Of a DNA stretch of 64,000 nt, positions 5,812 through 47,582 are shown one piece after another. Every line of letters begins with the position of its first letter. The stretch's first letter is position 1. The stretch is from Candidatus Babeliales bacterium. GTDB taxonomy: Bacteria > Babelota > Babeliae > Babelales > JBFXEV01. The translations under genes and the position numbers were made by a program. Location: NCBI GenBank assembly GCA_050179755.1, contig JBFXEV010000001.1:1001994-1065993 (forward strand), in the 5' to 3' direction. Under the pieces are notes generated by a model. That model made no database searches. It was not told the DNA's origin and saw nothing but the letters and a program-made list of their open reading frames with translations.

Positions 5812-6597
5812 ATGAAAAAGTTGTCACTCTCATTGTTATTAGCATGCATAGGATTTTGCAATGCAATGGAGCCTGTACCAAGTAAGGAGAAATCAAGAAC
5901 AGTAGCGCCAGCAAGACAAAGAAGATGTTGTTGCATATCAGTGGAATCTGCTGTTGAGCCTGGTTCGCATGAAGAAAAAACGCTAACGCTTTCTGATAAG
6001 CCGTTCGAATTTTCAATTGGGGAAGATCAAGTTAATGAACTTATGGAACCACTTTCTCAGCAAAAAATGGCACGTGTTTATGCTGTAAATGCCAATAAAA
6101 TAACCAGATCACGCAGCTTAACGTCGGAACGAATGCAGCAATTGGTTACCAAGGTGCTGCGTGAGGAAGCCACAAAAGACATGTTTCATGCGGTCGTGAA
6201 CAATCATCCAGGCCTTGTTGCAGCATCTATTGGTGATGGTGCATACGTGAATGCCACTATTAATAATAAATGGACGGCGCTTCATTTTGCAGCACGTGAT
6301 AGAAATGTAGAGGTTGCTAAAATACTTTTGGCCGTGCGTGGCATTAATACAGCGCTTGTTAATGGTAGTGGCGATACTGCAGAGCAAGTAGTGCTGCAGC
6401 GTAGATCTGGCGCAACGCCTGAGCATCAAGCATTATGTGATAAAATTTTGGAATTACTCGGTTTGCATAAAAGAGGCAAGTATCCCTATAGCTTAAAAAA
6501 TGGCAACTTGATTCCAAAGGAAACAGTTGCTCAAGCAGTTGAGCAACCTCGCACTGTTTCATTTGCACCTACTATGGAGCCTGTGGTGTTTCAGTAA
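5812..6597 (+). CDS. Secreted ankyrin-repeat protein
   Basis: Signal peptide ending CNA-MEP; ankyrin motif WTALHFAA...VAKILL. Confidence 0.8.
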   Translation: MKKLSLSLLLACIGFCNAMEPVPSKEKSRTVAPARQRRCCCISVESAVEPGSHEEKTLTLSDKPFEFSIGEDQVNELMEPLSQQKMARVYAVNANKITRSRSLTSERMQQLVTKVLREEATKDMFHAVVNNHPGLVAASIGDGAYVNATINNKWTALHFAARDRNVEVAKILLAVRGINTALVNGSGDTAEQVVLQRRSGATPEHQALCDKILELLGLHKRGKYPYSLKNGNLIPKETVAQAVEQPRTVSFAPTMEPVVFQ

Positions 6598-6675
6598 GCA
6601 AAGAGTGTTTAAGAATATATGGCTAGATTATGATTATGATAACGATAGTTTTTAAGTAAGGAACAGGAAATTATC

Positions 6676-7071
6676 ATGAAAGATAAAGATACAACATTTC
6701 AAACACTCAAAGATACGTTAGCTCCTTTGTTTAAAGAGCGTGAGTGGGGCCAATTCCATACGCCAAAAAATCTGAGCATGAACTTAGTAGCAGAGGCTGC
6801 TGAACTTATGGAATTATTTTTGTGGTCAAACACACGAGAGCAGGTAGACGTAGAGCTTAAAGAAAATCGGCAAGAAGTAGAAGATGAACTTGCCGATGTT
6901 GTTATTGCTGCAATTACGTTTGCAATAGCAACTGATATAGATATTGCAAAAGCTATTGAACATAAAATTGAAATTTTTAAAAAAAAATATCCGGTTGAAC
7001 TGGCCAAAGGTACGAGTACTAAATATACAAAGTTGCATAAAAAAATAGTTAGATTAGAGTTTTGCCCTTAA
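6676..7071 (+). CDS. MazG-like nucleotide pyrophosphohydrolase (dCTP pyrophosphatase type)
   Basis: EREWGQFHTPKNL, EAAELMELFLW, DELADV, KYPV. Confidence 0.9.
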   Translation: MKDKDTTFQTLKDTLAPLFKEREWGQFHTPKNLSMNLVAEAAELMELFLWSNTREQVDVELKENRQEVEDELADVVIAAITFAIATDIDIAKAIEHKIEIFKKKYPVELAKGTSTKYTKLHKKIVRLEFCP

Positions 7072-7455
7072 TCCTATACGTTTAGCTATTGCTTGTAGTT
7101 GTTCTGGGTGATCTTTAAAGAGAGCCATGAGCACGGTACCTCGGCGCGCATTCAGAAAATACATGGTCTGCATATGTGCTGCATCACTCGGTGTTACTAC
7201 ATTTGAACTTTGTCTTGCACCAATATAATTCTTATTATAGGTTTCAATACTTTTATCTACAATTTTCGCAATTTCGAGCGCTGGCAGTTCTTTTTCAGCC
7301 AATTGCTCAATTATCTTTGTTGTTTTTACAAAGATAGGTTGAGACTTTAAGCGATCTTGCAATACAGCTGCAGTAGGCATTTTGATTTTGACCATAGCAA
7401 TGCATTGCGTGCCAAATGTTATGAGGGTAATTAAAAGAACATATTTTGAATTCAT
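7054..7455 (-). CDS. Hypothetical secreted protein
   Basis: Signal peptide ending CIA-MVK; AAAGGA upstream of start. Confidence 0.7.
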   Translation of the reverse strand: MNSKYVLLITLITFGTQCIAMVKIKMPTAAVLQDRLKSQPIFVKTTKIIEQLAEKELPALEIAKIVDKSIETYNKNYIGARQSSNVVTPSDAAHMQTMYFLNARRGTVLMALFKDHPEQLQAIAKRIGLRAKL

Positions 7456-7620
7456 ACGTTTTTCCTTTTAAAATGTTATTCAGATGCTCAATATTCATTT
7501 TAATAATAGCAATATTTCTTTGAGAACAAAATACTTTCTCTCATAATCTACCCCATTTACTTTTATGTCATATCTTATACCTTAATGTCAGAGTTGGACA
7601 CTGAATATGAAAGGCATCCA

Positions 7621-9099
7621 ATGGCACAACAAGATTTAAATAAAGAAACAACAGTTGTTAAAGAAAAACCTGTCATAAAAATAATGCCGGCAGTCACCGA
7701 TCAAAAACCCATACTTGCAAGCTATATTGCGGGTATTAAAGATACTGAGAATGGAGAGAGTATCTCTAAAATACTAAGTTATTTTGTGCCTGAATTTATT
7801 ACGGCATTAGTATTATATTCATTAACCTATTTTTATGATTCATGGTTAATTGCTCATTTAAAATCAACATCGTTATCCGGAACTGCAGGTACCACCAATA
7901 CCTTATTGCACGTGTTAACAAAAATGGCTGAAGGATTCACTGTTTCCACCATGATCCTTGCAGGCCTGTATAACGGCCGTAAAGAAGATAAACGTATTGG
8001 TAGAGCGCTTGTTGATGCCTTTTGGGTAACAACACTAGCAGGAACTTTGGTCGCATGTATGCTTTTTTTTGGCGCCTATTGGATTTATTATTTTCTGCGC
8101 GTACCAGAAAAAATGATTAGCCTAGGTACTCCCTATTTGCGCACGCGCGCAGTAGCAATTCTTTTTATGTACGTATACTTTGCATTAATTGGTTTCTTGC
8201 GCGGTATCAAAAATACGCGTGCTCCTATGATGATATTTATTCTTGGCGCATCAGTATTTATGTTTTTTGATTATGCACTTATTTTTGGTGCATTTGGATT
8301 GCCAGCACTTGAATTACAAGGCTCTGCGGTGGCTTCATTGATACAATTTGGCGTAATGCTTGTTGCAGCCTTTATATATATTTTTACTCATAAAGAATAT
8401 CAAAAATATGGCCTAAGTTTATTTAGCGATATTGGTGACTGGTCGCGCATTAAAGATTTATTGCGCCTCACTTGGCCTGTTATGCTTGATAAGGTCACGT
8501 TTGCCATGGGCTATTTATGGCTTGCTGGCATGATAAACCCAATGGGTAAATACGTGATTGCAAGTTTTTCAGCCATTAAAGATTTAGAACGTTTGGCCAT
8601 TATGCCTGCAGCTGCCTTTGCGCAGGTGATTACCTTTTTGGTCAGTAACAGTTATGGTATTGGTGATTGGCAGGCAATTAAGAGCAACTTAAAGAAGGTT
8701 GTCTTTTTGGCATCTATTTTTGTGTTTGCTATTCTGTTTATCTTTTCTATGTGGCCAGCCTTCTTTATTGGCATTTTTGACCATAAAGGTAAATATACCG
8801 AATTTGCGGCAGCTATTTTGCCCCTTGTGAGTGTACTTGTTTTCTTTGATTTGCTACAATTGATATTTGCAGGCGCTTTACGTGGTGCCGCCAATGTTAA
8901 GCTGGTCATGTACGCACGTTTGGGCGTTATGTTTCTGTTTTTTATACCAACCACATTGTTTATTGATTGGTTGGCGCTTGATAATGTCAAGTTATCGTTT
9001 CTTTTGATGTATGGGTCATTTTATGTAGGCAACGGCTTGATAAGCCTGGTATACATGTGGCGATTCCGTGGCCAGAGATGGACTACGAAGTCTGTTTGA
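7621..9099 (+). CDS. MATE family efflux transporter
   Basis: About 12 hydrophobic segments; GFLRGIKNTRAPM, PALELQGSAVAS, GALRGAAN. Confidence 0.88.
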   Translation: MAQQDLNKETTVVKEKPVIKIMPAVTDQKPILASYIAGIKDTENGESISKILSYFVPEFITALVLYSLTYFYDSWLIAHLKSTSLSGTAGTTNTLLHVLTKMAEGFTVSTMILAGLYNGRKEDKRIGRALVDAFWVTTLAGTLVACMLFFGAYWIYYFLRVPEKMISLGTPYLRTRAVAILFMYVYFALIGFLRGIKNTRAPMMIFILGASVFMFFDYALIFGAFGLPALELQGSAVASLIQFGVMLVAAFIYIFTHKEYQKYGLSLFSDIGDWSRIKDLLRLTWPVMLDKVTFAMGYLWLAGMINPMGKYVIASFSAIKDLERLAIMPAAAFAQVITFLVSNSYGIGDWQAIKSNLKKVVFLASIFVFAILFIFSMWPAFFIGIFDHKGKYTEFAAAILPLVSVLVFFDLLQLIFAGALRGAANVKLVMYARLGVMFLFFIPTTLFIDWLALDNVKLSFLLMYGSFYVGNGLISLVYMWRFRGQRWTTKSV

Positions 9100-15275: not shown

Positions 15276-15359
15276 AAGCTGATTTATTTCTTGAATTTAT
15301 AGTGTTATGTATTTTATTGCAGGCTCGTGTTGTGCATGCATTACGCAAGTTGGCAACAA

Positions 15360-15767
15360 TTAATAAATATCCGGAAAATGTGATTTTTCTTGAAACGCCG
15401 TTTGAAGCATAATAAAAACTTTTTCTGCGTCAGTAAGCACAACCACATTCTTTCCCATTTTTCTACTGGTTTTTATATCTAGCGCTGTGGTATGCCGTGC
15501 TGCCTCGTAACGGTGCGTAATTTTATTATCCTCAACGATTGGTTGACTCATAGCAGTTATGGTAGATCCTTTGGCAACTTCTGCTTGATAAAAAGTACGA
15601 TTAGCAATTGTCCACGTAGTGACATCTTTAATATATTCAATGCCTGTTTGTGCGGGATTAGCTTGCGCAGCATTCGATTGTGGGTCCATAGCGAGCAGGT
15701 GGCTGCTTGAAATAATACTTGCTATAAAAAGAAGATATGTAGATAATGTGAAAAAATGTTGTAGCAT
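15360..15767 (-). CDS. Small secreted protein (array member)
   Basis: Signal peptide ending LLA-MDP; C-terminal helix AEKVFIMLQTAF. Confidence 0.75.
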   Translation of the reverse strand: MLQHFFTLSTYLLFIASIISSSHLLAMDPQSNAAQANPAQTGIEYIKDVTTWTIANRTFYQAEVAKGSTITAMSQPIVEDNKITHRYEAARHTTALDIKTSRKMGKNVVVLTDAEKVFIMLQTAFQEKSHFPDIY

Positions 15768-16108
15768 TAGGTACCCTTTTGTTGCGCACTTTTGGCTGCT
15801 TCTTGCAGCTCATATGCATGTTTAACTTGATTATAAATTGTTTCTAAGCGTTCTTGCTCTATAGCAATTGTCGCATTATTACCTGTTTTTTCAAATGCAC
15901 GAATGTCCTTGAGTTCCGTGTCATAAAACACTGTGTACAATTTTAAACCATCTTTAGAAGGTCCTCTATATATGGGTTTTGTTTCAGTACCCCATTTAAC
16001 ATAGAGTTCTTTGTTAGCAGGGCCAGTTTTTTCCATTGCAAAGCTTGTAGCATTTTGAAGTCCAATCAAAAAAGTAATGGTGAGCGTATTGATAGTATTT
16101 TTTAGCAT
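15767..16108 (-). CDS. Small secreted protein (array member)
   Basis: Signal peptide ending SFA-MEK; C-terminal helix LETIYNQVKHAY. Confidence 0.75.
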   Translation of the reverse strand: MLKNTINTLTITFLIGLQNATSFAMEKTGPANKELYVKWGTETKPIYRGPSKDGLKLYTVFYDTELKDIRAFEKTGNNATIAIEQERLETIYNQVKHAYELQEAAKSAQQKGT

Positions 16109-16137
16109 TATTGAGCTTTCTCTAGTAAAATCGCTAT

Positions 16138-16461
16138 TTATTTTGGTGTTGTGTTGTTATTCATTGCTTGTTGGGTTGTATGTTTATTTTTAAGCAGAGT
16201 AAAAAGTTCTTCAGCGCCAACTAAAGTTATTACTCTTGGCTGACCATCATGACTTGTTTCTTCTCCAGCAAAATAGATTTGCCTTTCTTTATGATACTGT
16301 GCGTATATAACATGGTTAGGATTTACAGCTGAATAATAGGCTAGAACTGTCTTGCAATCAAATGTATATACTTTAGCATTCTCCATTGCCAATGTATGGT
16401 TGCCTGAAATAATACTGACTGCAAGAAGAATAAAGTTAAAAGCTATAAGTTTTTTTAACAT
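16138..16461 (-). CDS. Small secreted protein (array member)
   Basis: Start placed at MLKKL; signal peptide ending TLA-MEN; AEELFTLLKNKH. Confidence 0.72.
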   Translation of the reverse strand: MLKKLIAFNFILLAVSIISGNHTLAMENAKVYTFDCKTVLAYYSAVNPNHVIYAQYHKERQIYFAGEETSHDGQPRVITLVGAEELFTLLKNKHTTQQAMNNNTTPK

Positions 16462-16480
16462 TGTATTGATTTTTCTTTGA

Positions 16481-16825
16481 TTATTTTTCAGAAACATTAT
16501 CGCCATGACTAATCACTAATGATTTGCGTTGTAACATATAAGCAAGTTTTAATTGTTCAAATTTCTTCTTTGCAGCGCTCTCGGGGTATTCTGTTTCTAA
16601 TATATCACCATCTGCGCATACACCGCGATAGGTGGCGCAATATTTGCCGGTTGCCTTATTGAATGAAGCTACTTCAGAATCTCTTTGATCGGTAGTTGGG
16701 CCTGTGTATGTTTCAATTTGTTTGTCGGCATCAAAAGTAAACGTGTGCATTGCATGCGCAGAATGTATCATGATAATGCTCATGATGAGTGCTGCATAGC
16801 TTACATGTTGTTTAATTTTTTTCAT
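16481..16825 (-). CDS. Small secreted protein (array member)
   Basis: Signal peptide ending AHA-MHT; FNKATGKYCA; AKKKFEQLKLAY. Confidence 0.75.
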   Translation of the reverse strand: MKKIKQHVSYAALIMSIIMIHSAHAMHTFTFDADKQIETYTGPTTDQRDSEVASFNKATGKYCATYRGVCADGDILETEYPESAAKKKFEQLKLAYMLQRKSLVISHGDNVSEK

Positions 16826-16869
16826 TGTAGGTGTAGCATTCTTTCTAAGTGTTGAACACTGGTAACGTG

Positions 16870-17151
16870 TTATTTTTTTGTTTTTTCTTGCTTTGCATGA
16901 TCTTGCGCTAATTGATGATACACTGATTTGGGGCTTGCATAGTAAGCTACCGTATCAGAGCCTATATGGCAAGCAGCGTAGTTTCCCGTATGAGGATTAT
17001 ACGTGGTTACTACACGTCCTTTAGAATCTGGTATTGAATAGGTAATGGTGTCGTCTTTAGTCTCTTTGGTAATAGTACGCTTCATTGCAAACAAAGATGC
17101 ATTGCTGGTGAGGATGCAAAGTATTAGTACATATTTTATGTGATGTATCAT
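16870..17151 (-). CDS. Small secreted protein (array member)
   Basis: Signal peptide ending LFA-MKR; YNPHTGNYAA; PKSVYHQLAQDH. Confidence 0.72.
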   Translation of the reverse strand: MIHHIKYVLILCILTSNASLFAMKRTITKETKDDTITYSIPDSKGRVVTTYNPHTGNYAACHIGSDTVAYYASPKSVYHQLAQDHAKQEKTKK

Positions 17152-17460
17152 TAATGTTCCTTTTGGCGGTATGGTATGTTTAATTACTAATCTTTCTTAT
17201 GTCTTTTTGTATCACCCTGGTGAATTTCATCATAGAAGAGCTTTCTTTAAAGTGTAAAAATGCTTACCGATCGCACCTAGTATAGCATGAGCGGTATAAA
17301 GTAACTATGCACCACTCACCTGGTTATGTAGTATATCACTTGGCTCGAGCGAGTGCATATATATAACACATAATACCTTTAAATATTGCTTTACTTTAGG
17401 GCTTTTTGGCATACTTAGGGTAAGTCAGGTCTAGATCCCTGCCCTGATTGTGAGGTTATC

Positions 17461-21929: not shown

Positions 21930-24900
21930 ATGCATAAATGTTTTTATAGCTTGTTTTTAGTATCGTCATTTGTTGTTGCGATGGAACCAAATTTAACTAT
22001 TCAATGTGATCCTGCGTTAATTCCTACCTATCATGAATGTGCACAGGAACTTCAAAATAATTCTTGGCACAAAGCTGTTGATACAGCATTGCTTTCAGCA
22101 TATGCAGAGCATGGTGATCTACACATGTTTGAGTCAAGGATTGGGCGTGAAAAAAAATTACGTGATAATCAATTACTTTCATGGGCCATGGGCAGTGAAT
22201 TTGATGTGGTAAGAACACTTTTAAGGCGTGGTATTGCGCAAACTATAGGTGATAGTAGTTGGTGCAGTTATATAGAATCCGCATTGTCTGACAATAATGA
22301 TCTTCTTGCAACTGAGTTATTACAAGCAAAAGCAGATTTTGATCCACAAGCAGGTAAAATGGATTGGGTAACGTTATTGCAATGGGCAGCATCAACTGGT
22401 GCAATCAACACGGCACGTACTCTACTTGAAGGCCCGTATGGTGCAAAAATGGTTGATGCTTCTACAAAGAGTGCTCCTTTTACACCATTGCAACTTGCAG
22501 CGCAATGGCAGCAGGTTTCTAATGGCGTATGTTATGCTGAACCATTATTTAGCGCACGCAAACGTGAAATGATTAATTTGTTGCTCACACATAGAGCAAA
22601 ATTTGATGTGATAATTACTACAAGATTTGGTGACCGTTGTGTAGTTGGTAATGAACATACGCAATCATTTGTTAATTGGTGTGTGTCACAAAAATATGAT
22701 GATTGTTTAGCGCGTTTAGTTGAACGTAAGCAATTATGTGGAGATAATGTTATTAAGAATGATTATTCTGGTGTAGAACAAACATTATCATCTTGGGCCG
22801 CAGGGCAGGGCAGTTTGCCGCTCGTAAAAGCATTAGTGCCGATGGTAGATGAAAAACCTAAGTATCAGGTAGATTTTACTGAATTGATTAAGCGAGCAGT
22901 AAATTGGGGCCGTAAGCCTGTTATCGATTATTTAGGCATGCATCCAGCCACTAAAAGAAGAAAATCTACCGCACAATTAATGATGCATTGCGCTGTAAGC
23001 CATGGTTGGTTGGGCACAGCGCGCGCACTTGCAACGCATTATGGTATTGAAAATCTTACTGGTGAAGATGATTGGTATCATACTAGTGAATATTTTCATG
23101 ACATAGCACCAAACGTATCTCCTGCAATGGTGCGGCAACTTCTTGCGTGGGATTGTAATCCGCGTGCAAAAAATGAACAAGGTAACGTGCCGCTTATGTC
23201 AGTTACTGCTGCAAATAACGTGCAATCAACAGCTGTTATGCTTGCAGCAGGTTGTTTGCTCGATGAAGGAAATATTTCAGCACTCGCTGCAACTTTTTCT
23301 TCAAACAAGACAACACCAGAACTGTTTGAACAACTACTTGCCTATACATCTGATCGTGCGCATGTGCGAGAGATTTGTGTTGCGCAGACTGGCATGACTC
23401 CTGTTGAATTTGCTGTTGGCAAAGGCTACCGCATGACCAAGCTAGTGCTAGAAGCTGGATTTGATCCGAATGAATATAAGCAAGAGCATCCTCTTGCATT
23501 TGCAGTTGGCCATAAGGATAGTGAACTAGTGGCATTGCTTTTGCGCCATGGCGCAGATGCCGATATAACATTTGAAGATGGCAGTACGTTGTTGCATAGA
23601 GCTGCACAACATGGCAGCGTTGTTATGTTGCAACATTTGTTTAATGCCGGCGTGCAACCGTCAGTAGATGAAAATGGGCACACGCCTTTGTTGAATGCTG
23701 CTTATTTCAATACTCCTGAAGTTGTTTCATTCTTGCTTAATCGCAATGGCCCAGAGGCAATTCGTCAAATAGCATATACATTAGAATCTCATAATGATGG
23801 CCCTGATATTTCGCAAACGCTATTTGAATATGTGATTCACCAAAGAAGAAATGATGTAGTGCCAGTATGCCAATTACTTTATGAGCTTGGCGCTGATTTA
23901 GAACGCGTTAATGAACTTGGTGAAACGCCGATATTTTGGGCAGTCAGAAATAGCAACGCTGCCGCACTTGAATGGGCAGTGGCACAAGGTGCTCGCCTTG
24001 ATGTAACAAATCAAGAAGGTGAAACGCCTCTTTCATTTTTGGCATCGCAAATAGAATGGGTTCAAGAAGAATTATTAATTGCTGTGCTTAAAGGGCTTTC
24101 TGCTTATGCCGGCGGCGTTGTGCCAGTGATGGATGCTATAGAGCTTAGTAAAAAATATCCATTAGATAACTATTGGGTTTCTGATGAGCACGTTAAAGTT
24201 TGGAAAGCATCACTGAAGTTTGATCCATTTGAACAAATTGGGCTTTATTGTGGCACTGGTTTGCATAAAGAGTATCTGCGTGAGCGTGAGGTTAAACCAA
24301 CACTTGCAGCTCGGTTAAAAGAGATTGAGCAAAAAAATTGCCGGCATGGTGCGTATTTGTTTGCACAAAAAATGAAGGAGATGTTTACTGGTAATGATCT
24401 TGAAGCGGTAAAGCAATTTGTGGCGACTAATGTTAATTTGTGTACATATGACGTGCAACATGGTGCTACGGTGCTCCATTGGGCTGCCCAAAATGGTCAT
24501 GCTGATTTGGTAAGAGATTTGCTTGAAAATCATGGCCTTAAAGAAGTAATCAATAAAGAAACTATTCATAAATGCGCTGCATTAAGTGAAGCGGCAACTG
24601 CTGAATGTGCGCAGATACTACTTGATAATGGTGCCGCAATTACGCCAAACGTGATCTCTCGATTAATTTTTCAAACAAATAACGAGGCATGTGGTGTAAT
24701 TCTTGCGCATCTTGATGGGGCAGCGTTTTCGCAGGAAGATGTTCAACGTCTTTATGAAAGTGCGGCTCATAATGGTAACGTGCTGATTACCCAAAAATTT
24801 TTGGAGCTTGGTGCTCAGCCTAAAATAGCAGATCTTGAGCATGCGGTGCGTGAGCAACGTGTTGGTGTGGCGACTTTGCTTGCAGCACGAGGCATTTCAA

Positions 24901-25799
24901 TTGCAGATGCTAATACGGCAGCACAACAAAACAAGTGGAACCCTTTATCTTCTCTTGCTTATCTTGCAGTGGAAAAGAAAAATTCTGCTTTACTTAAAGA
25001 AGTTATTGAAACAGCAGATGAGTCATTGTTAACAAGTGCAGTGTGGCGGGATTTTCATGAAGGTGTTGCTATCTTATTAGAAGCTGGTATTGTTCCCACC
25101 AATACACATCCAAGTGATCCCTTGATGGATGCAATACGAGCTAAATCTGTTGAGTGTTGTAAACTACTAGTGGAACATCAAACCGTGCGGTTTGTGCATG
25201 TAGAAAAAGCATTGCTACATGCACCAATTATGCGCATATTATTGCCAAAATTTGAACCATCACAAGAACAGTGTGCAGCGCTACTTGAAAAAGCAGTTGA
25301 TTCGTGTGCTGCAGATTCGGTGCGCATTTTGCTTGAGAAAACGCGTAATTTAAGTGGTGTTACTTCTAAGGGGCTTACGTATTTTCATATGATTGCACAA
25401 AAAGCACATCACTTTGGTGTTGATGAACGCAGCGCGCAAAATAAAGGTGCTCATTGGAGTGAACGAGTTAAAAATATTACCTGGTTGCAATCTTGGAAAA
25501 CGCGCGTTTTAGAAGGTAATGAATGCGCAGATACTCAATCAGAATCACGAGGAAAGGTTCAAGGCATTGTTGCAACTTTGCATGCGTTAATGACAACGCC
25601 TGTTTGCGCTAGCGCGCAAACGCACAAAAACGCACTTTTTTGGGCATTGCACGGGGGAGTTGGCAAACAGCAAATAAAGCCTTTTGATATGGCACAGAAA
25701 GCTGGTAATTCCACTACATTTTCTGATCTGTTTGATGTTGCTAAAGTTGAACAGTGGCATGCGGCAATTGATCGGGAGTATGAGAAGAAGGATGTATGA
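21930..25799 (+). CDS. Large secreted ankyrin-repeat protein (1289 aa)
   Basis: Signal peptide ending VVA-MEP; many ankyrin motifs (GSTLLHRAA, GHTPLLNAA, GETPIFWAV, GATVLHWAAQNGH). Confidence 0.9.
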   Translation: MHKCFYSLFLVSSFVVAMEPNLTIQCDPALIPTYHECAQELQNNSWHKAVDTALLSAYAEHGDLHMFESRIGREKKLRDNQLLSWAMGSEFDVVRTLLRRGIAQTIGDSSWCSYIESALSDNNDLLATELLQAKADFDPQAGKMDWVTLLQWAASTGAINTARTLLEGPYGAKMVDASTKSAPFTPLQLAAQWQQVSNGVCYAEPLFSARKREMINLLLTHRAKFDVIITTRFGDRCVVGNEHTQSFVNWCVSQKYDDCLARLVERKQLCGDNVIKNDYSGVEQTLSSWAAGQGSLPLVKALVPMVDEKPKYQVDFTELIKRAVNWGRKPVIDYLGMHPATKRRKSTAQLMMHCAVSHGWLGTARALATHYGIENLTGEDDWYHTSEYFHDIAPNVSPAMVRQLLAWDCNPRAKNEQGNVPLMSVTAANNVQSTAVMLAAGCLLDEGNISALAATFSSNKTTPELFEQLLAYTSDRAHVREICVAQTGMTPVEFAVGKGYRMTKLVLEAGFDPNEYKQEHPLAFAVGHKDSELVALLLRHGADADITFEDGSTLLHRAAQHGSVVMLQHLFNAGVQPSVDENGHTPLLNAAYFNTPEVVSFLLNRNGPEAIRQIAYTLESHNDGPDISQTLFEYVIHQRRNDVVPVCQLLYELGADLERVNELGETPIFWAVRNSNAAALEWAVAQGARLDVTNQEGETPLSFLASQIEWVQEELLIAVLKGLSAYAGGVVPVMDAIELSKKYPLDNYWVSDEHVKVWKASLKFDPFEQIGLYCGTGLHKEYLREREVKPTLAARLKEIEQKNCRHGAYLFAQKMKEMFTGNDLEAVKQFVATNVNLCTYDVQHGATVLHWAAQNGHADLVRDLLENHGLKEVINKETIHKCAALSEAATAECAQILLDNGAAITPNVISRLIFQTNNEACGVILAHLDGAAFSQEDVQRLYESAAHNGNVLITQKFLELGAQPKIADLEHAVREQRVGVATLLAARGISIADANTAAQQNKWNPLSSLAYLAVEKKNSALLKEVIETADESLLTSAVWRDFHEGVAILLEAGIVPTNTHPSDPLMDAIRAKSVECCKLLVEHQTVRFVHVEKALLHAPIMRILLPKFEPSQEQCAALLEKAVDSCAADSVRILLEKTRNLSGVTSKGLTYFHMIAQKAHHFGVDERSAQNKGAHWSERVKNITWLQSWKTRVLEGNECADTQSESRGKVQGIVATLHALMTTPVCASAQTHKNALFWALHGGVGKQQIKPFDMAQKAGNSTTFSDLFDVAKVEQWHAAIDREYEKKDV

Positions 25800-26744
25800 A
25801 ATTAATTTTGCTGTGTTTATTAATGAGTGCGCATGCTGTTGCAATGGATACGCAGAATTCATGTGAAGCACATGAAACTCCACGTGTACTTGAGGGTGCT
25901 CTCCTTTCAAAAGAAGCGCGCCAAGCAAAGCTTGCTGAATGGTGGGGCACTAAAAAAATAAACGTGAAACAGTATCCAATGGCCAGTGCAAGTGGCTCTG
26001 GAAGATGGGATATATGCTTGTTGTTGGCACAAGAATATGGAGATGCATTAATAGAAGACGATATTCAAAAAGTATTTTCGCATGCAACTGCAATTAGTAG
26101 TTGTGGACGTATTGATGATTGCATTCCAGTATGTAGCGCATTCGTGCGTCTTGGCGCAAAGCCCACTGCCGATCAATTGTTATTTGCAATAAAGTGCCTT
26201 AATAATCCAATGGCACAATTTTTGATACAGAATGGTGTGACCATTGCGCAAGCTGCTGAACACCGAAAAATTGTGTATCACGGCAAACCATCATCTCTTG
26301 CAGAATTGGTAGTGTGTCTATCACGGCCTCATCTTAATAGGACCAAAGGGCTTGCGATGCTCCAAACAGTTATTGAGACAGCAAATGCAGGAACTCTTTT
26401 TAGTGCTTTGCGTGCTCATTGGGTTGAAGCGGTGGCACTAGTGATCAAGCAGCTTGCTGTGCGCGGTGAACCGTTACCCGCACAGGCTTTGAGCATTGCA
26501 ATAGTGGAGGAATCAGTTGAGTGTTGTAAGTTATTACTGGCCGCATGGTCAAGTGGTTACTTGGGAGCATATTCAATTACCGCATGATCCTGCAGTTCTT
26601 GAATGTTTGTTGTCTGAGTATGATGCTACACCAGAGCAACTGGCACGGTTTGAGGATTTTATCAATAACCCGCATAATGGTGGTTATGATATGAAAGAAG
26701 TAATGCGTGCCTATATTAAGCGAAGGAATTCGGAGTTGGCTTGA
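25796..26744 (+). pseudogene. Secreted degenerate-ankyrin protein, frameshifted near 26540; paralog of the C-terminal part of 21930-25799
   Basis: SVECCKLL shared with the upstream protein; similarity (HQTVRFVHV vs HGQVVTWEHI) continues in the ORF 26517-26744 frame. Confidence 0.65.
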
Positions 26745-27850: not shown

Positions 27851-27852
27851 AA

Positions 27853-30869: not shown

Positions 30870-31784
30870 TTAGTGAGCGTACGCGTAGCGTGTCTCCAAA
30901 TAACTGCATACGTTATCAAGAGTAGCCTGTAAGAGCGAGCTTTGCAGTTCAGTACTGTTTTCACGATCTCCGCCAAAAAGAGAAAGCAACGAGCTTTTTG
31001 GTTCCGGTTTGACCCATTCAATTTCACCTACTACGATTGCCATTTCCTTTATCTTACGCACAGCATCTGATTGTGAGCCAATTTCATCAATTAAGCCTAA
31101 TTTAAAAGCTTGGTTGCCGGTAAATATTTTGCCGTTTGCCCATTCGCTTGCTTTTTCTTTAGAAAGCTTATGCCGTTGCTTTGCCACATGTTCTATAAAG
31201 TTTTGGTAACTATCGTCTGAAAGGTCTTGCAGCATGGCAAGCTGCTCTGGTGTGGTTTCTATAAATGGATCAGTGCTGTTTTTATAGTCCCCGGAGCTTA
31301 GGTCTTTGTACTCAATATTATGATATTTAAGCAGCTTATCAAATCTAAATTGATAGGGAATTGTTGATCCAATAGAGCCCACAAAGGTAGAGGGTGCTGC
31401 AATGATATAATCGGTACTTGAGGCAATGTAATAAGCACCTGAGGTGCAAATATTTTCACAAAGGGTTATGATGGGCTTTGGGTATTCTTTCTTTAAAAGT
31501 TCAATTTCATGGGCGATAATTTCCCCCGTTGCAGCGGCGCTGCCTGGGCATTCTACACGCAAAAGAATTGCTTTAATTTCGTTATCTTTAAAATATTTGC
31601 GCAGATAGTGCACATAATCAGTGGAATCATAGAGCACGCCTTTGAGCGGCAGGTAGGCAATCTTGGTTTGCGGCTCAAGCATGTTGGTATAGTTTTTCAT
31701 GAAACTTTTAATGATAGGCGGGGCGATTTGCAGGAGTACCAGAAGAAAAAAGAGCGCTTTTAAATAATCAGTAAATTTTGCCAT
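30870..31784 (-). CDS. sppA: Signal peptide peptidase SppA (S49)
   Basis: ILLRVECPG, SGAYYIAS, VGSIG, SGDYK, GKIFTGNQAFKLGLIDEIG. Confidence 0.9.
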   Translation of the reverse strand: MAKFTDYLKALFFLLVLLQIAPPIIKSFMKNYTNMLEPQTKIAYLPLKGVLYDSTDYVHYLRKYFKDNEIKAILLRVECPGSAAATGEIIAHEIELLKKEYPKPIITLCENICTSGAYYIASSTDYIIAAPSTFVGSIGSTIPYQFRFDKLLKYHNIEYKDLSSGDYKNSTDPFIETTPEQLAMLQDLSDDSYQNFIEHVAKQRHKLSKEKASEWANGKIFTGNQAFKLGLIDEIGSQSDAVRKIKEMAIVVGEIEWVKPEPKSSLLSLFGGDRENSTELQSSLLQATLDNVCSYLETRYAYAH

Positions 31785-32315: not shown

Positions 32316-32390
32316 AAGGAGCCAAAGCTTTGAAAATTCACCTTAACTATGTATACTAACATATATAGTTTATCTTCTCATGAAATATTG

Positions 32391-32787: not shown

Positions 32788-33396
32788 ATGATATTAAGAA
32801 GCTTAGATGGCAAAAAGCGCTGTTTTGGTGGCCAACCGGGTAAAGAATTTTATGCAGAATATCATGATAATGAATGGGGCATTCCTGTTCATAATGATCA
32901 GCACTTATTTGAAATGCTCATTTTGGAGGGTGCCCAAGCGGGATTAAGTTGGGAAACTATTCTTAAAAGACGTACAGGTTATCGCAAAGCTTTCCATGAT
33001 TTTGATCCAGTTAAAGTGGCGTCAATGAGCGATGCTGAACTGGATGTATTATGTTCCAACCAGGAGATTATTCGTAATAAACGCAAAATATATACCGCAC
33101 GCCAGAACGCTCAAGCTTTTTTACGCATCAAGCAAGAATTTGGATCATTTGATCAGTATCTTTGGGATTTTGTTGGTAGCAAGCCTATGGTAAATCATTG
33201 GCAGCGGTTTGAAGATGTTCCGATTACCACGGTTGAAAGTGATGCATTATCAAAAGATCTCAAAAAGCGCGGGATGGCATTTGTTGGTTCTACAATTATG
33301 TATGCATACATACAGGCGGTAGGTCTAGTCAATGACCACTTGATCGAGTGCTGGAGGTATGGCCATGCTATCGCAGATAAGCAAAATAATTATTAG
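32788..33396 (+). CDS. tag: DNA-3-methyladenine glycosylase I
   Basis: YHDNEWGIP, LFEMLILEGAQAGLSW, IIRN, FVGSTIMYA, NDHL..C. Confidence 0.95.
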   Translation: MILRSLDGKKRCFGGQPGKEFYAEYHDNEWGIPVHNDQHLFEMLILEGAQAGLSWETILKRRTGYRKAFHDFDPVKVASMSDAELDVLCSNQEIIRNKRKIYTARQNAQAFLRIKQEFGSFDQYLWDFVGSKPMVNHWQRFEDVPITTVESDALSKDLKKRGMAFVGSTIMYAYIQAVGLVNDHLIECWRYGHAIADKQNNY

Positions 33397-34412
33397 TTTT
33401 TTGAGGAACTAGCTGATTTAGGTATCCGAGGACTTTCTTTAATTGCTTTATTGATATTATAGATAATATCTCTTTGTAATTGAGCGTCAGGTGCATCAGG
33501 AAAATATTTTTTTGCTAATGCTAATTTATCGCGAACAATTTCTGGAATTAATTGAGCAGCAACAAGCCTTCCCATATCTCTACCAAGAATATTTTGTTTT
33601 TTAGTTAAGGCAATAATTGCCGGTATTACATGCTGAATCTCACTTGGAGAAACTCTCGTGAGTAATATTCTTAGCACTCCGCTAATATTCTGAATAATAA
33701 GTTGTCTTAATTCTTCCTCTTGACGAGGCAATAGCTCTTTTGCAGCATTTAATTTTTGTGTAACTAATTCGGGAACGAGCTGAGCTGCAACAACACTGCC
33801 AACAGTTTGCCCCAGGGCTGGATTAATTAGATGTTGTATTGAGGCAAGGTTTGGCAGTATAGATACTAATTCTAGGGGGGAAACTGATGTGCTTAAAGCA
33901 CGAATAGCTTGAACATTATTCGATTGCCGGGCACCTTGCATTGGAGTCAATTCAAATTTATCAGGTGTGTTAATATTGGCACCATACGCAATAAGAATTG
34001 GAATTGCGTTTGCACCAAGAAACCCAGAAGAAACTGCAGCATGCAATGGTGTTTGGCCATTGTTATCGAGTGCCTCAATATTTGCACCAGCTTGAATGAG
34101 CGTGCTCACGCCCACAGTATTTCCAGCTCTTGCAGCGTGATGAAGAGGTGTTTGGCCTTCTAGATCTTTGTAATGTAAGTCAGCGCCATAGTTAAGAAGC
34201 TGATTAATTTGTTGTATATGGGGGTCTATCTGCTCAATGTTTCTATAATAAGGCACAGATCCGGCTAGACTCAATAATATTTCATTCCTGATATCTTGGG
34301 ATCTCCCTTTACTATCTTGTGTTAACTGTACAGGTTCTTGCATAGCATGCACTAAGCAAGTCTGTGGCAGCATTAAGCCAATTAAGATAAATAACATACG
34401 TTTTCTATTCAT
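33393..34412 (-). CDS. Secreted ankyrin-repeat protein with a duplicated C-terminal helical unit
   Basis: Signal peptide ending VHA-MQE; GQTPLHHAA, GQTPLHAAV. Confidence 0.88.
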   Translation of the reverse strand: MNRKRMLFILIGLMLPQTCLVHAMQEPVQLTQDSKGRSQDIRNEILLSLAGSVPYYRNIEQIDPHIQQINQLLNYGADLHYKDLEGQTPLHHAARAGNTVGVSTLIQAGANIEALDNNGQTPLHAAVSSGFLGANAIPILIAYGANINTPDKFELTPMQGARQSNNVQAIRALSTSVSPLELVSILPNLASIQHLINPALGQTVGSVVAAQLVPELVTQKLNAAKELLPRQEEELRQLIIQNISGVLRILLTRVSPSEIQHVIPAIIALTKKQNILGRDMGRLVAAQLIPEIVRDKLALAKKYFPDAPDAQLQRDIIYNINKAIKESPRIPKSASSSKN

Positions 34413-34596: not shown

Positions 34597-35289
34597 TTAA
34601 TTATGGCTGTCTGCAGTGCATGAATTATTCTTTAATGCCGCTTTGTGACGCATTTCTAGAAACAATTGAGATGTTTTCAGCCTTCTAACTTTTTCCTTTT
34701 GGTCAGCATCGTGCCATGCATTTTGTAAGTATTTAATTGTTTCATAGCCACCAAAGATAATTCCTGGTATAACGCTCCCTATCACATTAATACTCAATGA
34801 AGCAGCATCAATACTTGTGGGCGTTTGCTGCAGTTGGCAATAGGAAAGTATGCTTAACGTGAGATTTACTACGGAGAAAGCGGTGACAGCTGCTGGAAAT
34901 ACTACTGTTCTATAGCGGGGGCAACACCGTGCACATTTCTTGGTGGCAATGCGATCTTGCTGCAAATTTACTTGCTCGTGAGTATAGTTGAGTGCATGGA
35001 GTAATTGGTGAGTGCACTGCGCAGTATCCGTCTGATTAATCTCGTTTGCATCTTGTTTGAATAGTTGACTGAGTTCCAGTATATTGCCATCTCCTATGTG
35101 TTTTTTTAATTCAACAGATAATGCGGTTGAGGCTTTCCCTTCTTCGATACTAACATTAACTTCAGGGGTCTGCTGGGATATAGTTGCAAGAGCAGTTCCT
35201 TGCACCTCCATCCCATTGAGTGTATGGCCTAATGCACAGGGTAAAACAACTATTGATTTGCATAACAAATATAAAAAGAGATTGTTCAT
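34597..35289 (-). CDS. Hypothetical exported protein with two internal hydrophobic helices
   Basis: Signal-like N-terminus ending LNG-MEV; two TM-like segments. Confidence 0.7.
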   Translation of the reverse strand: MNNLFLYLLCKSIVVLPCALGHTLNGMEVQGTALATISQQTPEVNVSIEEGKASTALSVELKKHIGDGNILELSQLFKQDANEINQTDTAQCTHQLLHALNYTHEQVNLQQDRIATKKCARCCPRYRTVVFPAAVTAFSVVNLTLSILSYCQLQQTPTSIDAASLSINVIGSVIPGIIFGGYETIKYLQNAWHDADQKEKVRRLKTSQLFLEMRHKAALKNNSCTADSHN

Positions 35290-40125: not shown

Positions 40126-40267
40126 AGTAGATATCCTTTTTTTTACTCTAGCACGTGACTAACTACATTTAATAGAGTTACGTTTCTTTTGATATAACTC
40201 TTTAAATCATTATTTGCTTTTGCTATGCTGGTGTAATATAATTAAAAACCTTGTCTGCGGAGGATAT

Positions 40268-42149: not shown

Positions 42150-43016
42150 ATGATAAGCATGACTCAAATTAAAGACAAATTTTTGGACACGGTAAAATCG
42201 CTTTTGATTATTTTACCAATCGCTTTTTTTATACGCACGTTTGTATATGGTTTATATCAGGTGCCAACAAGCTCCATGGAAACCACTATGCTTGTGGGAG
42301 AGCGATTTTTGGCAGATAAGTTTTCTGTATGGCTTGGCAGGCTAGAGCGCGGCAATATTATTGCCTTTAATGATTATTGGCGATTTAAATATTCTACCAA
42401 TCCTGCAAAGCGTCTGTTCCAGATGTATGTCTGGGGACCCGAAAATTGGACCAAACGAATCATTGGAAAACCAGGAGATCATGTAAAAGGTGTGATTGAA
42501 GATGGTAAGCCGGTGGTATATTTGAATGGTCAAAAACTAGATGAGCCCTATGTAAATAAATATCCTCTTATTGCCACCTACGTGCCAGGAGGCGCACCAA
42601 TAGATGGTAGTTCTTATTTATATCGTTCATACGATCCCTCTGTATCACTTGAAGCGCAGCCGTTTTACCGTTTGGAACAAGCAAATGTAGCTCTTGCAAA
42701 ACGTATGTTCACGGCAATGGGTGCATCACCAATTCTTGAACCAGGTACTCCGGTGACTGATGGTAACCGTAACGTTGATGAATTTGACGAGCAGCTGGGT
42801 GAGAATGAATATTGGGTAATGGGTGATAATAGAATGAATAGTGGCGATTCCCGATTTAATGGGCCACTCCCTGCAGAATATATTCATGCAAAGATTGTGT
42901 TGAGATTATGGTCAATTGATAGTGCTGAATCATGGTGGATTGTTGATTTGATTAAACATCCTATTGATTTTTGGACACGCGTGCGTTGGTCAAGGTTCTT
43001 TCAAATTCTTTCATAA
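42150..43016 (+). CDS. lepB: Signal peptidase I
   Basis: VPTSSMETT (Ser), KRIIGKPGD (Lys), VMGDNRMNSGDSR. Confidence 0.93.
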   Translation: MISMTQIKDKFLDTVKSLLIILPIAFFIRTFVYGLYQVPTSSMETTMLVGERFLADKFSVWLGRLERGNIIAFNDYWRFKYSTNPAKRLFQMYVWGPENWTKRIIGKPGDHVKGVIEDGKPVVYLNGQKLDEPYVNKYPLIATYVPGGAPIDGSSYLYRSYDPSVSLEAQPFYRLEQANVALAKRMFTAMGASPILEPGTPVTDGNRNVDEFDEQLGENEYWVMGDNRMNSGDSRFNGPLPAEYIHAKIVLRLWSIDSAESWWIVDLIKHPIDFWTRVRWSRFFQILS

Positions 43017-45953: not shown

Positions 45954-46478
45954 ATGTCATCTTCAAACTATGAATGGTCAAAAATTGTTCTCATGTTAGT
46001 GTTGCTTTGTTCAGCAGCAAGCAACTGTATGGACGCAGGATTTGCTGTGTCTGGGCAAATTAAAGTGGAAAAGCCAGCTGCGCCAAATGCATTAAAAATC
46101 ACAGAAATAATTAAAGACACTGATTTAAGATATTTGGCAACACTAGGTGCAGGTGCGGGTTTAACGGCAGCGGGAATTGCAGTATTGCTTAAAAGTTGTT
46201 GGGCTTCAAAAAATGTTGATGATTATAAAAAGGCATCTACGTTAGAAGAGTGGGAACGCTTGCGCTATCACTATGGTGAAGATAATATTCGCGGTGGCTC
46301 TGGATTTTTTTATATTTGTACTGGTTTATTTATTATTGCAAATGCTAAGAATATTCCGGCATTTTATGACAGAGTTGGTGAATGGCTAGGTACTGGGCTA
46401 CAAAGATTTTTAAATACGTATTCCGTGGTAAATGTACTTTCTAATGGTGCAAAAGATGTTCCAAAGTTTGATATATAA
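45954..46478 (+). CDS. Hypothetical exported membrane protein, copy 1
   Basis: Signal peptide ending SNC-MDA; Gly-rich TM LATLGAGAGLTAAGIAVLL. Confidence 0.75.
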   Translation: MSSSNYEWSKIVLMLVLLCSAASNCMDAGFAVSGQIKVEKPAAPNALKITEIIKDTDLRYLATLGAGAGLTAAGIAVLLKSCWASKNVDDYKKASTLEEWERLRYHYGEDNIRGGSGFFYICTGLFIIANAKNIPAFYDRVGEWLGTGLQRFLNTYSVVNVLSNGAKDVPKFDI

Positions 46479-46506
46479 AGTATGACATTTTATGGCATGA
46501 GAGCAG
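46127..46506 (+). repeat. 380-bp direct repeat, copy A (copy B at 47762-48141)
   Basis: About 8 substitutions by eye, no indels. Confidence 0.93.
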
Positions 46507-46576
46507 AATGGTTCTCATGCCATTTTCCATTTAAAACTGGTACAACCAATAATACTATAACAGCAGAAAAGATACG

Positions 46577-46923
46577 TGTCATATTCAAAATTATTACTTT
46601 TGGTATGCTTGAGCACTCATAGTTTTACATTTGGGCATTTTGCCTGATGATCAAAAAGGCATAAAGATTTCAGATTATTTCAGATTCTGATTATAGATAT
46701 TTGACATATGTTGGGCTAGGTGGCGCAACTTCATTGGGCGGGATTGCGCTTATGGTTAAAAGCTTCTGGAAAACGCGAGCTGCTGAAGAGTATAAAAATA
46801 CAAACTTTTTGGAGAGAGTGCAGGAAGATTGTAAACAAAGTGGGCAATTTATTAATGGTGCTATTACAACGTGTGTGGATTGGCAATCATAGCAAACTTA
46901 AAAACTATGCCAACGTATTGTGA
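46577..46923 (+). pseudogene. Frameshifted paralog of 45954-46478
   Basis: SDYRYLTYVGLGGATSLGGIALMVKSFWK matches TDLRYLATLGAGAGLTAAGIAVLLKSCWA; signal peptide lies in another frame. Confidence 0.7.
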
Positions 46924-46991
46924 CGCAAATGCGCAGGCAGATCTTAATCGACGTGGTTTGTAAATAAATTTTAATTTTTCTAGAGGATATT

Positions 46992-47582
46992 ATGAAAATT
47001 ATTGGTTATATATCATTGGTGATTTCTTTAATGGTATCGCCTCTCTTTGGAATGGAGCTAGATGGTAGAGGAAAAGACGAAAGGCGCTCAATTCAATTTT
47101 TGGACCAAGCTGCCTATGTTAATGGTAGTTTGATAAATTCAGAAACAAGCCGTGCAATAGAAACATGGAAAAAAGCTGAGGATAAATTAACTGACTTAGA
47201 AGAACGTCAAAATAATAAGCCTGTTATAAGTCGATTGGCCTCTTTAGGTTTCCCCTCTGCTGTTGTATTATTGCATAATTTGTTTCCTAATGGTGTACCT
47301 CTGTGGGATGTACAAGGCCAATGGGTAGCTGGAGCAATACTTGTTGGTGGTTTGGCGGCATCTTTCTGGGGATTGAGCAAAGCAGATGAAGTAAAAAAAG
47401 TTGAAGAATTAGAAACAAAAACAATGAGTACTGATTTGCCTGCGTTGCGTCAAGTATTTCAGCAGTTAAAACCGGATGCAAGAGTTGATGCAAGTAATCT
47501 ATTACTATTACATGCTAAGTCTTACAAAGACTGGGACAAAGTAAGATCAGCGTTAGACGTCAATAATAATAATAACGATTAA
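46992..47582 (+). CDS. Hypothetical exported membrane protein
   Basis: Signal peptide ending LFG-MEL; two hydrophobic segments; GAGG upstream. Confidence 0.75.
   Translation: MKIIGYISLVISLMVSPLFGMELDGRGKDERRSIQFLDQAAYVNGSLINSETSRAIETWKKAEDKLTDLEERQNNKPVISRLASLGFPSAVVLLHNLFPNGVPLWDVQGQWVAGAILVGGLAASFWGLSKADEVKKVEELETKTMSTDLPALRQVFQQLKPDARVDASNLLLLHAKSYKDWDKVRSALDVNNNNND

Follow-up and report, generated by a model that had tools for sequence, protein, structure and literature searches.

We identified a methionine at the first mature position (+1), directly behind the predicted signal-peptide cleavage site, of 13 exported proteins encoded on a stretch of 64,000 nucleotides from a Candidatus Babeliales bacterium (GenBank assembly GCA_050179755.1, contig JBFXEV010000001.1, positions 1,001,994 to 1,065,993 of the forward strand). 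This stretch was analysed at its full length and is hereafter called the window; coordinates are window positions unless a locus of a relative is named. The pattern is a '+1 methionine rule': accessory, putatively host-directed exported proteins (ankyrin-repeat proteins and orphans) carry a Sec/signal peptidase I signal and then Met, usually followed by Glu or Asp, whereas exported enzymes and conserved envelope proteins are without the +1 Met. We consider the motif very probably real, class-specific, and selected. It is best read as a selected mature N-terminus, acting either as a mimic of a eukaryotic cytosolic N-terminus or as an export tag, two readings of nearly equal weight.

Enrichment of methionine at the first mature position

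A first, sequence-only reading of the window had listed 13 signal peptides that end directly before a Met, and all 13 open reading frames (ORFs) were recovered, with an in-frame ATG verified for each (Table 1). In each, an n-region that is short and polar or basic precedes an uncharged hydrophobic core and a c-region, and an ATG-encoded Met follows directly after the −3/−1 site. The −1 residue is Ala (n = 10), Gly (n = 2), or Cys (n = 1, in 45954–46478), the −3 residue is small or aliphatic in all 13, and the +2 residue is Glu (n = 6), Asp (n = 3), Gln, Val, His, or Lys (n = 1 each). Signal peptides were called with simple rules of our own, which combine a hydrophobic window (eight uncharged residues with a mean Kyte-Doolittle value of at least 1.9) with −3/−1 preferences and ignore the +1 residue. 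By these rules all 13 proteins have a Sec/signal peptidase I signal, i.e. a core of at least eight uncharged residues within the first ~35 residues and small or neutral residues at −3/−1, and the cognate Peptidase_S26 and SppA are encoded in the window. Other signal types were rejected. The +1 residue is Met and not the Cys of a signal peptidase II (lipoprotein) site in 13/13, the sole nearby Cys being that at −1 of 45954–46478; none of the 13 n-regions contains the Arg-Arg of a twin-arginine translocation (Tat) signal; and, against a type IV pilin-like (class III) signal, the hydrophobic segment precedes the site and the acidic residue stands at +2 rather than as Glu at +5.

The window encodes 28 signal-peptide proteins, 13 with and 15 without a +1 Met, the latter counted by eye. 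Methionine makes up 2.23% of residues in the background (non-initiator Met over 68 gene calls), and its frequency of 13/28 at +1 is thus far beyond chance (P for at least 13 of 28 = 9e-15; for at least 9 of 28, counting only the sites that our scorer ranks first, = 6e-9; for at least 8 of 23 families, with paralogues collapsed, = 2e-8), so that the enrichment expected from the sequence-only reading holds at the scale of the window. The scorer ranks the Met site first in nine of the 13 and first or tied in 11. When the scorer was run on a non-overlapping ORF set, 12 of the 36 signal-peptide-like ORFs had Met at the top site, including one false positive inside an MFS transporter gene. A scan of window ORFs of 35–94 amino acids yielded no additional real +1 Met case. 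Two trivial sources of the pattern were discarded: a general Ala-Met dipeptide bias (26 dipeptides seen vs 28.5 expected beyond residue 45) and a common signal-peptide 'cassette', the 13 signal peptides being without BLAST similarity to each other.

By sequence comparison the 13 proteins appear to collapse to about eight independent families, so that their initial description as unrelated orphans applies to several of them and not to the set as a whole. The five tandem array proteins (15360–17151) form one very diverged family whose relatedness is invisible to BLAST, 21930–25799 and 25796–26587 are paralogues, and ankyrin repeats are clear in three of the 13, with a weak match in one more. The orphan 46992–47582 had no homologue beyond itself in a search of 5.8 billion proteins. 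Array member 15360–15767, searched against 1.84 billion representatives, retrieved itself and two repeat-protein matches only, of which P0123 was fetched and judged spurious. The AlphaFold2 (AF2) model of the array family has a mean predicted local distance difference test score (pLDDT) of 51.5. In array member 3 (16138–16506) the longest ORF shares 26 nucleotides with the upstream gene and a start at 16461 (107 amino acids) is likelier; the Met is residue 41 of the longest ORF and residue 26 counted from 16461.

Conservation of the methionine

Relatives were compared at seven loci (L001–L007) of genomes that were matched by the window MreC (21019–21819), whose relatives were found solely in Dependentiae/TM6 genomes. 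The best match is L001, also from a Candidatus Babeliales bacterium (70% identity), and the matches of L002–L007 are 34–40% identical; the gene order of L002 is of the Dependentiae type. By these matches the window comes from a parasite of protists of the Babeliales type. It has a G+C content of ~40% and encodes ATP/ADP translocase, Ku, ATP-dependent ligases, MreC, type I signal peptidase, and SppA.

The ankyrin protein 33393–34412 provides the deepest sampling. All nine of its signal-peptide-bearing full-length homologues (P0002, P0004, P0008, P0013, P0023, P0024, P0077, P0084, and P0125, with P0023 and P0024 nearly identical) have Met directly after the signal peptide, at 28–50% identity, followed by Glu (n = 7), Lys (n = 1), or Gln (n = 1). 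In alignment A1, which holds this family with its full-length homologues, the +1 Met is the sole near-invariant column among the first ~60 besides the start Met and one Leu. The Met is missing at that position from a tenth homologue, P0033, whose N-terminus does not resemble a signal peptide. P0125 was the one new member gained by searching with the C-terminal domain alone. This conserved helical domain (residues ~170–339 of 33393–34412) has no Pfam match at gathering score, is seemingly present in two copies in the window protein and in one in most homologues, and supplies most of the invariant columns of A1.

The L001 orthologue of the large ankyrin protein 21930–25799 (46% identity over ~1300 residues) has a signal peptide followed by Met-Asp-Pro instead of Met-Glu-Pro, and this Met-acidic-Pro start is retained even though ~90 residues are inserted shortly behind it. 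Its longest ORF (L001 12099–16241) begins 15 codons upstream of the conserved signal-peptide start; in the DNA alignment of L001 with 21930–25799 the conserved start is a Shine-Dalgarno-like (SD-like) GGAT with the signal-peptide ATG. In the array family, made up of the five window genes and one gene at the syntenic place in L001, the Met is kept in 6/6 members that are 17–30% identical to the first member, taken as reference, and it is among only four invariant columns. From these alignments, purifying selection very probably holds the Met in place as the residues around it drift, and its conservation in distant relatives gives it the look of an undescribed N-terminal tag. A natural pair with and without the motif is formed by 45954–46478 and its paralogue 47664–48113 (+), which are 85% identical over ~144 residues and both keep the hydrophobic segment; 47664–48113 has a GTG start and is without signal peptide and without Met-acidic N-terminus.

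Among the 120 listed matches of 33393–34412, 54 have a signal-peptide-like N-terminus by the scorer; five of them have a +1 Met, all within the 33393–34412 family, and for a sixth member of that family the scorer chose an adjacent site. The remaining 48, which are ankyrin proteins outside the full-length family, are all without a +1 Met. Across L002–L007, Met is at the top site in 4/48 signal-peptide-like ORFs (P = 0.022), and none of these four had a Pfam match. Judging from these loci, the +1 Met rule looks strongest in this Babeliales lineage and weaker across the phylum.

Class contrast and genomic context

As the sequence-only reading had noted for housekeeping exported proteins, the motif is missing from the remaining signal-peptide proteins of the window (+1 Met in 0/15). 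Enzyme or toxin domains were detected with Pfam in 12 of these 15 and in none of the 13 Met-class proteins, which are ankyrin proteins or orphans. The domains of the non-Met class are PAP2 (n = 2), a HipA-like kinase (under the Pfam cut-off), pretoxin-HINT (n = 2), APH, AAA_28 (n = 2), peptidase M48, PAF acetylhydrolase-like, histidine phosphatase, and CPT-like. The ankyrin protein 36871–37764 (−) has strong Pfam matches and an N-terminal hydrophobic segment without a clear −3/−1 site and without the Met motif, and may be a signal-anchored exception to the rule.

A conserved order of the 4286–4993 orthologue, rsmG, the MATE gene, gatA, PAP2, dus, mreC, and sppA runs across L002–L007, and Met-class genes sit in insertions into this backbone (5812–7455, 14358–19295, and 21930–30825). 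For 5812–6597 the insertion is lineage-specific and separates rsmG from the MATE gene. Their position in lineage-specific insertions marks the Met-class genes as accessory and fast-evolving, a type that is treated in the Dependentiae literature as candidate host-interaction proteins. For Babela, signal peptides are reported on 79 of 126 ankyrin proteins, with secretion into the amoeba assumed for them (PMC4378268), and in Chromulinavorax signal peptides are reported on up to 44% of coding sequences and on 78% of ankyrin proteins (PMC6561590).

A residue of the mature protein or a start codon

The sequence-only reading had considered that the Met could be an internal start giving cytoplasmic isoforms, a proposal that the start contexts disfavour. 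An SD-like 4-mer within −18 to −4 of the start codon precedes 38/67 gene starts overall and 9/13 upstream starts of the Met-class genes themselves, compared with 1/13 of their Met codons (9/13 vs 1/13, Fisher p = 0.004), and the sole SD-like motif before a +1 Met codon is poorly spaced; an alternative-initiation gene structure was rejected on this ground. True starts in this genome are followed by Lys, Asn, Leu, Ile, or Ser, and Asp or Glu follows the true start in 1/67 genes vs the +1 Met in 9/13. The signal peptide is conserved as coding sequence in homologues, and neither of the two signal-peptide-less relatives (P0033 and 47664–48113) starts at the position of the Met. The SD deficit, the different +2 residues, the conserved signal peptides, and the starts of the relatives together make an internal start or a functionless fossil start unlikely. 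An effect of the Kozak type at the nucleotide level, with a purine at −3 and G at +4, was likewise discarded, since it would bring Ala, Gly, or Val codons to +2, where Glu and Asp dominate and Ala and Gly are absent.

A dual start, with the conserved ATG as a second initiation codon that would yield a cytoplasmic form identical to the mature protein next to the exported form, would account for the conservation of an ATG specifically and for the exact coincidence of the Met with the mature N-terminus, but the counts just given for SD-like motifs, for acidic residues after starts, and for the relatives (0/2) leave it very improbable. We give equally little credence to the idea that signal peptides were added by 5' extension to older ORFs, perhaps acquired from eukaryotes, and that the former initiator Met was left behind without function. 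The genes are indeed accessory and some are eukaryote-like (ankyrin), and one family (7054–7455) has lost the Met. A functionless relic would, however, have to be reconciled with retention of the Met in 9/9, 2/2, and 6/6 members of three families at 17–50% identity despite changing neighbours, with its position directly against the −3/−1 cleavage motif in 13/13, with a +2 residue unlike the start context of this genome, and with the complete absence, in 26/26 sequences, of the small +2 residues that are usual after eukaryotic starts (Ala, Ser, Gly, and Thr).

Possible functions of the mature N-terminus

The motif comprises the Met and, coupled to it, an acidic residue. Asp or Glu is at +2 in 9/13 Met-class proteins vs 2/15 of the others (Fisher p = 0.006), and one of the four residues Asp, Glu, Asn, and Gln in 10/13 vs a background of 19.3% (P = 1e-5). 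Among 26 Met-class sequences (13 from the window, nine homologues, and four from other loci) Ala, Ser, Gly, Thr, Cys, and Pro never occur at +2. In the AF2 model of 33393–34412 (mean pLDDT 75) residues 16–34 have a pLDDT below 50, and in this model Met 24 would open a flexible tail of ~10 residues before the first helix.

We tentatively place first, as a possible rather than a probable function and by a narrow margin over an export tag, a eukaryote-type N-terminus. Signal peptidase I would cut after Ala or Gly at −1 and expose Met-Asp or Met-Glu on a flexible tail, and the purpose would be to give a Sec-exported protein the ordinary N-terminus of a eukaryotic cytosolic protein. Met would be chosen because cytosolic proteins universally begin with it, a bulky +2 residue would block removal of the Met by methionine aminopeptidase, a hydrophobic +2 residue would create a Met-Φ degron (Φ, hydrophobic), and a basic one would hamper Sec export. 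With a bulky residue needed and hydrophobic and basic residues excluded, Asp, Glu, Asn, and Gln would remain, which is the set observed and equals the substrate class of NatB, an N-terminal acetyltransferase. In eukaryotes the residue exposed at the N-terminus sets protein stability (Arg/N-degron rule), and in the non-Met class 11 of the 15 signal-peptide proteins would present residues that this rule classes as destabilising. The specificity of NatB is given as Met followed by Asp, Asn, Glu, or Gln (PMC11735805), so that the NatB-like N-terminus suggested in the sequence-only reading fits as a class of sequence after predicted cleavage in 10/13 proteins; the doubtful part of that suggestion is the modification, NatB being described in the same source as co-translational and ribosome-bound.

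Several points weigh against a eukaryote-type N-terminus or against the data on which it is built. Acetylation of an imported protein is not expected of a ribosome-tethered, co-translational enzyme, and the same source describes unacetylated NatB-type N-termini as possible targets of UBR1/UBR4 (PMC11735805). Both acetylation and arrival in the host cytosol are hypothetical for the Met-class proteins. Babela grows inside a vacuole, and type II is the only secretion system detected there (PMC4378268). Stability alone leaves the exclusive use of Met unexplained, since Ala, Ser, Thr, and Gly are also stabilising under the Arg/N-degron rule. Further hydrophobic segments in three of the 13 (34597–35289, 45954–46478, and 46992–47582) mean that these three may be membrane proteins. 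The L001 homologue of 7054–7455 (31% identity) is a counter-example with Gly instead of Met after the signal peptide. The cleavage sites are crude rule-based predictions, and the assumed position of the cut is weakest in 45954–46478 and 16870–17151, where sites two and four residues upstream outscore the Met site (8.2 vs 6.2 and 7.8 vs 7.3, respectively), and in 15767–16108 and 25796–26587, where a site two residues upstream ties with it. The sample is also limited, comprising the 64-kb window and ~135 kb of DNA of relatives.

An export or sorting tag is conceivable too, if on the doubtful side. The Met-acidic N-terminus would here be read after cleavage by bacterial machinery or machinery at the vacuole boundary and would part cargo that leaves the cell from envelope residents. 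The class contrast (13/13 orphan or ankyrin proteins vs 0/15 enzymes or envelope proteins) is what a sorting tag predicts, and one strictly conserved residue suits recognition by a receptor. On the other side, two signal-peptide-bearing pretoxin-HINT proteins that presumably leave the cell are without the Met, the extra hydrophobic segments in 3/13 are unusual in soluble type II cargo, and a tag gives no reason for Met and an acidic residue in particular. No linear N-terminal signal is known for type II secretion. Dependentiae have been described with Sec and type II secretion only, including two gspD copies (PMC4776705, PMC4378268), and with these systems alone some discriminator would be needed. 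A precedent comes from Plasmodium falciparum, for which it is reported that a cut by signal peptidase suffices for export if it leaves the correct mature N-terminus (PMC10653839). By analogy, Met-Asp/Glu could be the label that defines the effectors of Dependentiae and gives their address, as a bacterial counterpart of the mature-N-terminus signal of Plasmodium, and would be read by post-Sec translocation or by host N-terminal machinery; we hold this wider proposal with reserve.

Less plausible, and in our estimation improbable, is a protective N-terminus, in which Met-acidic(-Pro) would shield the proteins from aminopeptidases or proteolysis in the periplasm, the vacuole, or the host in the way of the pyroglutamate of the Bacteroidetes Q-rule. 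Pro stands within a few residues of the Met in 5812, 15767, 21930 with its L001 orthologue, and 34412. An unmodified N-terminal Met, however, is readily removed by aminopeptidases and no modifying enzyme was identified. The Q-rule, as described, is a case of a phylum fixing one +1 residue for stability (PMC5837995, PMC10653852), but it covers most signal-peptidase-I substrates, whereas the Met rule is limited to one exported class.

Other features of the window

The coordinates of the signal-peptide proteins and of the processing enzymes are collected in Table 1. The type I signal peptidase is the presumed processing enzyme and would cleave before the Met.

Table 1. Signal-peptide proteins of the window and enzymes of signal-peptide processing
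Feature	Coordinates	Strand	Description	N-terminus	Position of Met
Met class	5812..6597	+	261-aa ankyrin-repeat protein	signal peptide, then Met-Glu	residue 19, codon 5866-5868
Met class	7054..7455	-	133-aa orphan	signal peptide, then Met-Val (non-acidic case)	residue 21, codon 7393-7395
Met class	15360..15767	-	array member 1, 135 aa	signal peptide, then Met-Asp	residue 27, codon 15687-15689
Met class	15767..16108	-	array member 2, 113 aa	signal peptide, then Met-Glu	residue 25, codon 16034-16036
Met class	16138..16506	-	array member 3	signal peptide, then Met-Glu	codon 16384-16386
Met class	16481..16825	-	array member 4, 114 aa	signal peptide, then Met-His	residue 26, codon 16748-16750
Met class	16870..17151	-	array member 5, 93 aa	signal peptide, then Met-Lys	residue 23, codon 17083-17085
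Met class	21930..25799	+	1289-aa ankyrin-repeat protein	signal peptide, then Met-Glu-Pro	residue 18, codon 21981-21983
Met class	25796..26587	+	263 aa, paralogue of the C-terminal part of 21930-25799	signal peptide, then Met-Asp	residue 17, codon 25844-25846
Met class	33393..34412	-	339-aa ankyrin protein, conserved helical C-terminal domain	signal peptide, then Met-Gln	residue 24, codon 34341-34343
Met class	34597..35289	-	230-aa orphan, two extra hydrophobic 19-mers	signal peptide, then Met-Glu	residue 27, codon 35209-35211
Met class	45954..46478	+	174-aa orphan, one extra hydrophobic segment	signal peptide, then Met-Asp	residue 26, codon 46029-46031
Met class	46992..47582	+	196-aa orphan, one extra hydrophobic segment	signal peptide, then Met-Glu	residue 21, codon 47052-47054
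Non-Met class	4286-4993			signal peptide, no +1 Met	
Non-Met class	10951			signal peptide, no +1 Met	
Non-Met class	13336			signal peptide, no +1 Met	
Non-Met class	14358-15275			signal peptide, no +1 Met	
Non-Met class	27853-29610			signal peptide, no +1 Met	
Non-Met class	35478-35864			signal peptide, no +1 Met	
Non-Met class	37942			signal peptide, no +1 Met	
Non-Met class	40214			signal peptide, no +1 Met	
Non-Met class	40978			signal peptide, no +1 Met	
Non-Met class	43063-44013			signal peptide, no +1 Met	
Non-Met class	48195			signal peptide, no +1 Met	
Non-Met class	49302			signal peptide, no +1 Met	
Non-Met class	51117			signal peptide, no +1 Met	
Non-Met class	57620			signal peptide, no +1 Met	
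Non-Met class	62102-62827			signal peptide, no +1 Met	
Processing	42150..43016	+	type I signal peptidase (Peptidase_S26), Pfam PF10502, E=1e-33		
Processing	30870..31784	-	signal peptide peptidase SppA (Peptidase_S49), Sec processing context, Pfam PF01343, E=4e-36		

aa, amino acids.

Signal peptides are also present on nucleotide-dependent enzymes, i.e. a HipA-like kinase, an APH-family phosphotransferase, two tandem AAA_28 P-loop proteins, and a CPT-like kinase (14358–15275, 37942–38913, 40214–41595, and 62102–62827), and a TLC ATP/ADP translocase is encoded at 44381–45775. Exported ATP-using enzymes are unusual; their site of action may be the host, or a periplasm into which host ATP is supplied. 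Next to sppA, in the window as in L001, lies a fused MsrA-MsrB methionine sulfoxide reductase with an N-terminal hydrophobic anchor (29734–30825, −); an extracytoplasmic enzyme for the repair of Met sulfoxide deserves mention alongside an exported class that would start with Met.

The two pretoxin-HINT proteins (27853–29610 and 51117–52946, both with signal peptide) are 31% identical across their N-terminal ~420 residues and belong to the regions 26940–29610 (−) and 51117–56818 (+). In the latter, 51117–52946 is followed by a 287-amino-acid gene, by orphan copies of the C-terminal ~90–150 residues of 51117–52946 (54110–54565, 70% identity; 54726–55016, 56%), and by two paralogues of the 287-amino-acid gene (55004–55873 and 55943–56818, 61–66%). 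By these sequence relationships the arrangement resembles that of a polymorphic-toxin locus which holds cassettes of toxin tips and immunity genes in reserve. No Pfam match other than HINT was obtained for any of these proteins.

Ku and an ATP-dependent DNA ligase (17461–19295, +), a non-homologous end joining pair, adjoin the tandem array in a lineage-specific insertion that is shared with L001, and a second ATP-dependent ligase-like ORF (1693–3585, +) was judged from its translation alone. A tRNA-Met is located at 990–1066 and a cluster of tRNA-Val, tRNA-Asn, and tRNA-Asp at 31941–32468, beside the accessory region that ends at sppA.

Significance

Dependentiae have reduced genomes and live as widespread obligate parasites of protists, in which ankyrin and orphan proteins would have to be told from envelope residents and to persist in the host. 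A type II system is described as common to the TM6 genomes compared in PMC4776705. A class-specific +1 rule would provide a simple sequence handle for effector prediction in the phylum. If Met-Asp/Glu is indeed an address label of effectors, the host-directed secretome of an uncultivated, genetically intractable phylum could be read straight from genome sequence. With the Q-rule of Bacteroidetes as the first example, the Met rule would also be the second in which a lineage has fixed the +1 residue of its signal-peptidase substrates, and it would allow a test of whether eukaryotic N-terminal rules, or a new export signal, have shaped a Sec-exported protein.

Comparison with known systems

In diderm bacteria, often acidic residues behind the cleavage site set the compartment of lipoproteins, as in the +2 rules of lipoprotein sorting and in the lipoprotein export signal of Bacteroidetes. 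Those signals depend on signal peptidase II and a lipidated Cys, and the proteins described here have no Cys at +1. N-end-rule control of Sec-secreted proteins in the host cytosol has reportedly been found for LLO (listeriolysin O) and ActA of Listeria. As in the Met class under a eukaryote-type reading, the residue exposed by cleavage is said to set the fate of these proteins in a eukaryotic cytosol; no +1 residue is said to be fixed there, in contrast to a whole class that shares one here.

NatB substrates resemble the Met class in the sequence of their N-termini, 10/13 window proteins, 8/9 homologues, and 3/4 proteins from other Dependentiae loci starting in the NatB-type way after predicted cleavage. 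They differ in origin: NatB substrates are described as made on host ribosomes and acetylated co-translationally (PMC11735805), whereas Met-class proteins would arrive already synthesised.

The PEXEL pathway of Plasmodium is similar in that a parasite directs proteins to its host with a hydrophobic signal and a new N-terminus whose second residue is typically Glu, Gln, or Asp, and in that mature N-termini separate exported from vacuole-resident proteins (PMC10653839). It is a eukaryotic pathway in which plasmepsin V acts and RxL precedes the cut, unlike the signal-peptidase −3/−1 residues and the Met as first residue found here. A PEXEL motif was accordingly rejected for the 13 proteins, all of which have signal-peptidase-type residues from −3 to −1 and no Arg at −3, the acidic or amide second mature residue alone being held in common.

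Closest is the Q-rule of Bacteroidetes, likewise a lineage-specific residue right after a signal-peptidase-I site that is enriched at +1 and has its function in the mature N-terminus (PMC5837995, PMC10653852). The window does not follow the Q-rule itself: Gln is at +1 in 2/28 signal-peptide proteins (35478–35864 and 57620–58435) vs Met in 13, and the organism belongs to the Dependentiae. In Bacteroidetes the Gln is cyclised to pyroglutamate; here Met is combined with an acidic +2 residue, in one class (13/28) and in the phylum Dependentiae. A term search of the Q-rule paper (PMC5837995) returned no mention of methionine, TM6, or Dependentiae, and no +1 Met motif was described in the literature retrieved on signal peptides, ankyrins, and effectors of Dependentiae/Babeliales or on signal peptidase I cleavage sites, methionine, and secretomes. 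As a lineage-specific rule for the first mature residue the Met rule appears to be new, and it is distinguished from the Q-rule by the Met, by the coupling to an acidic +2 residue, and by the restriction to one class of exported proteins.

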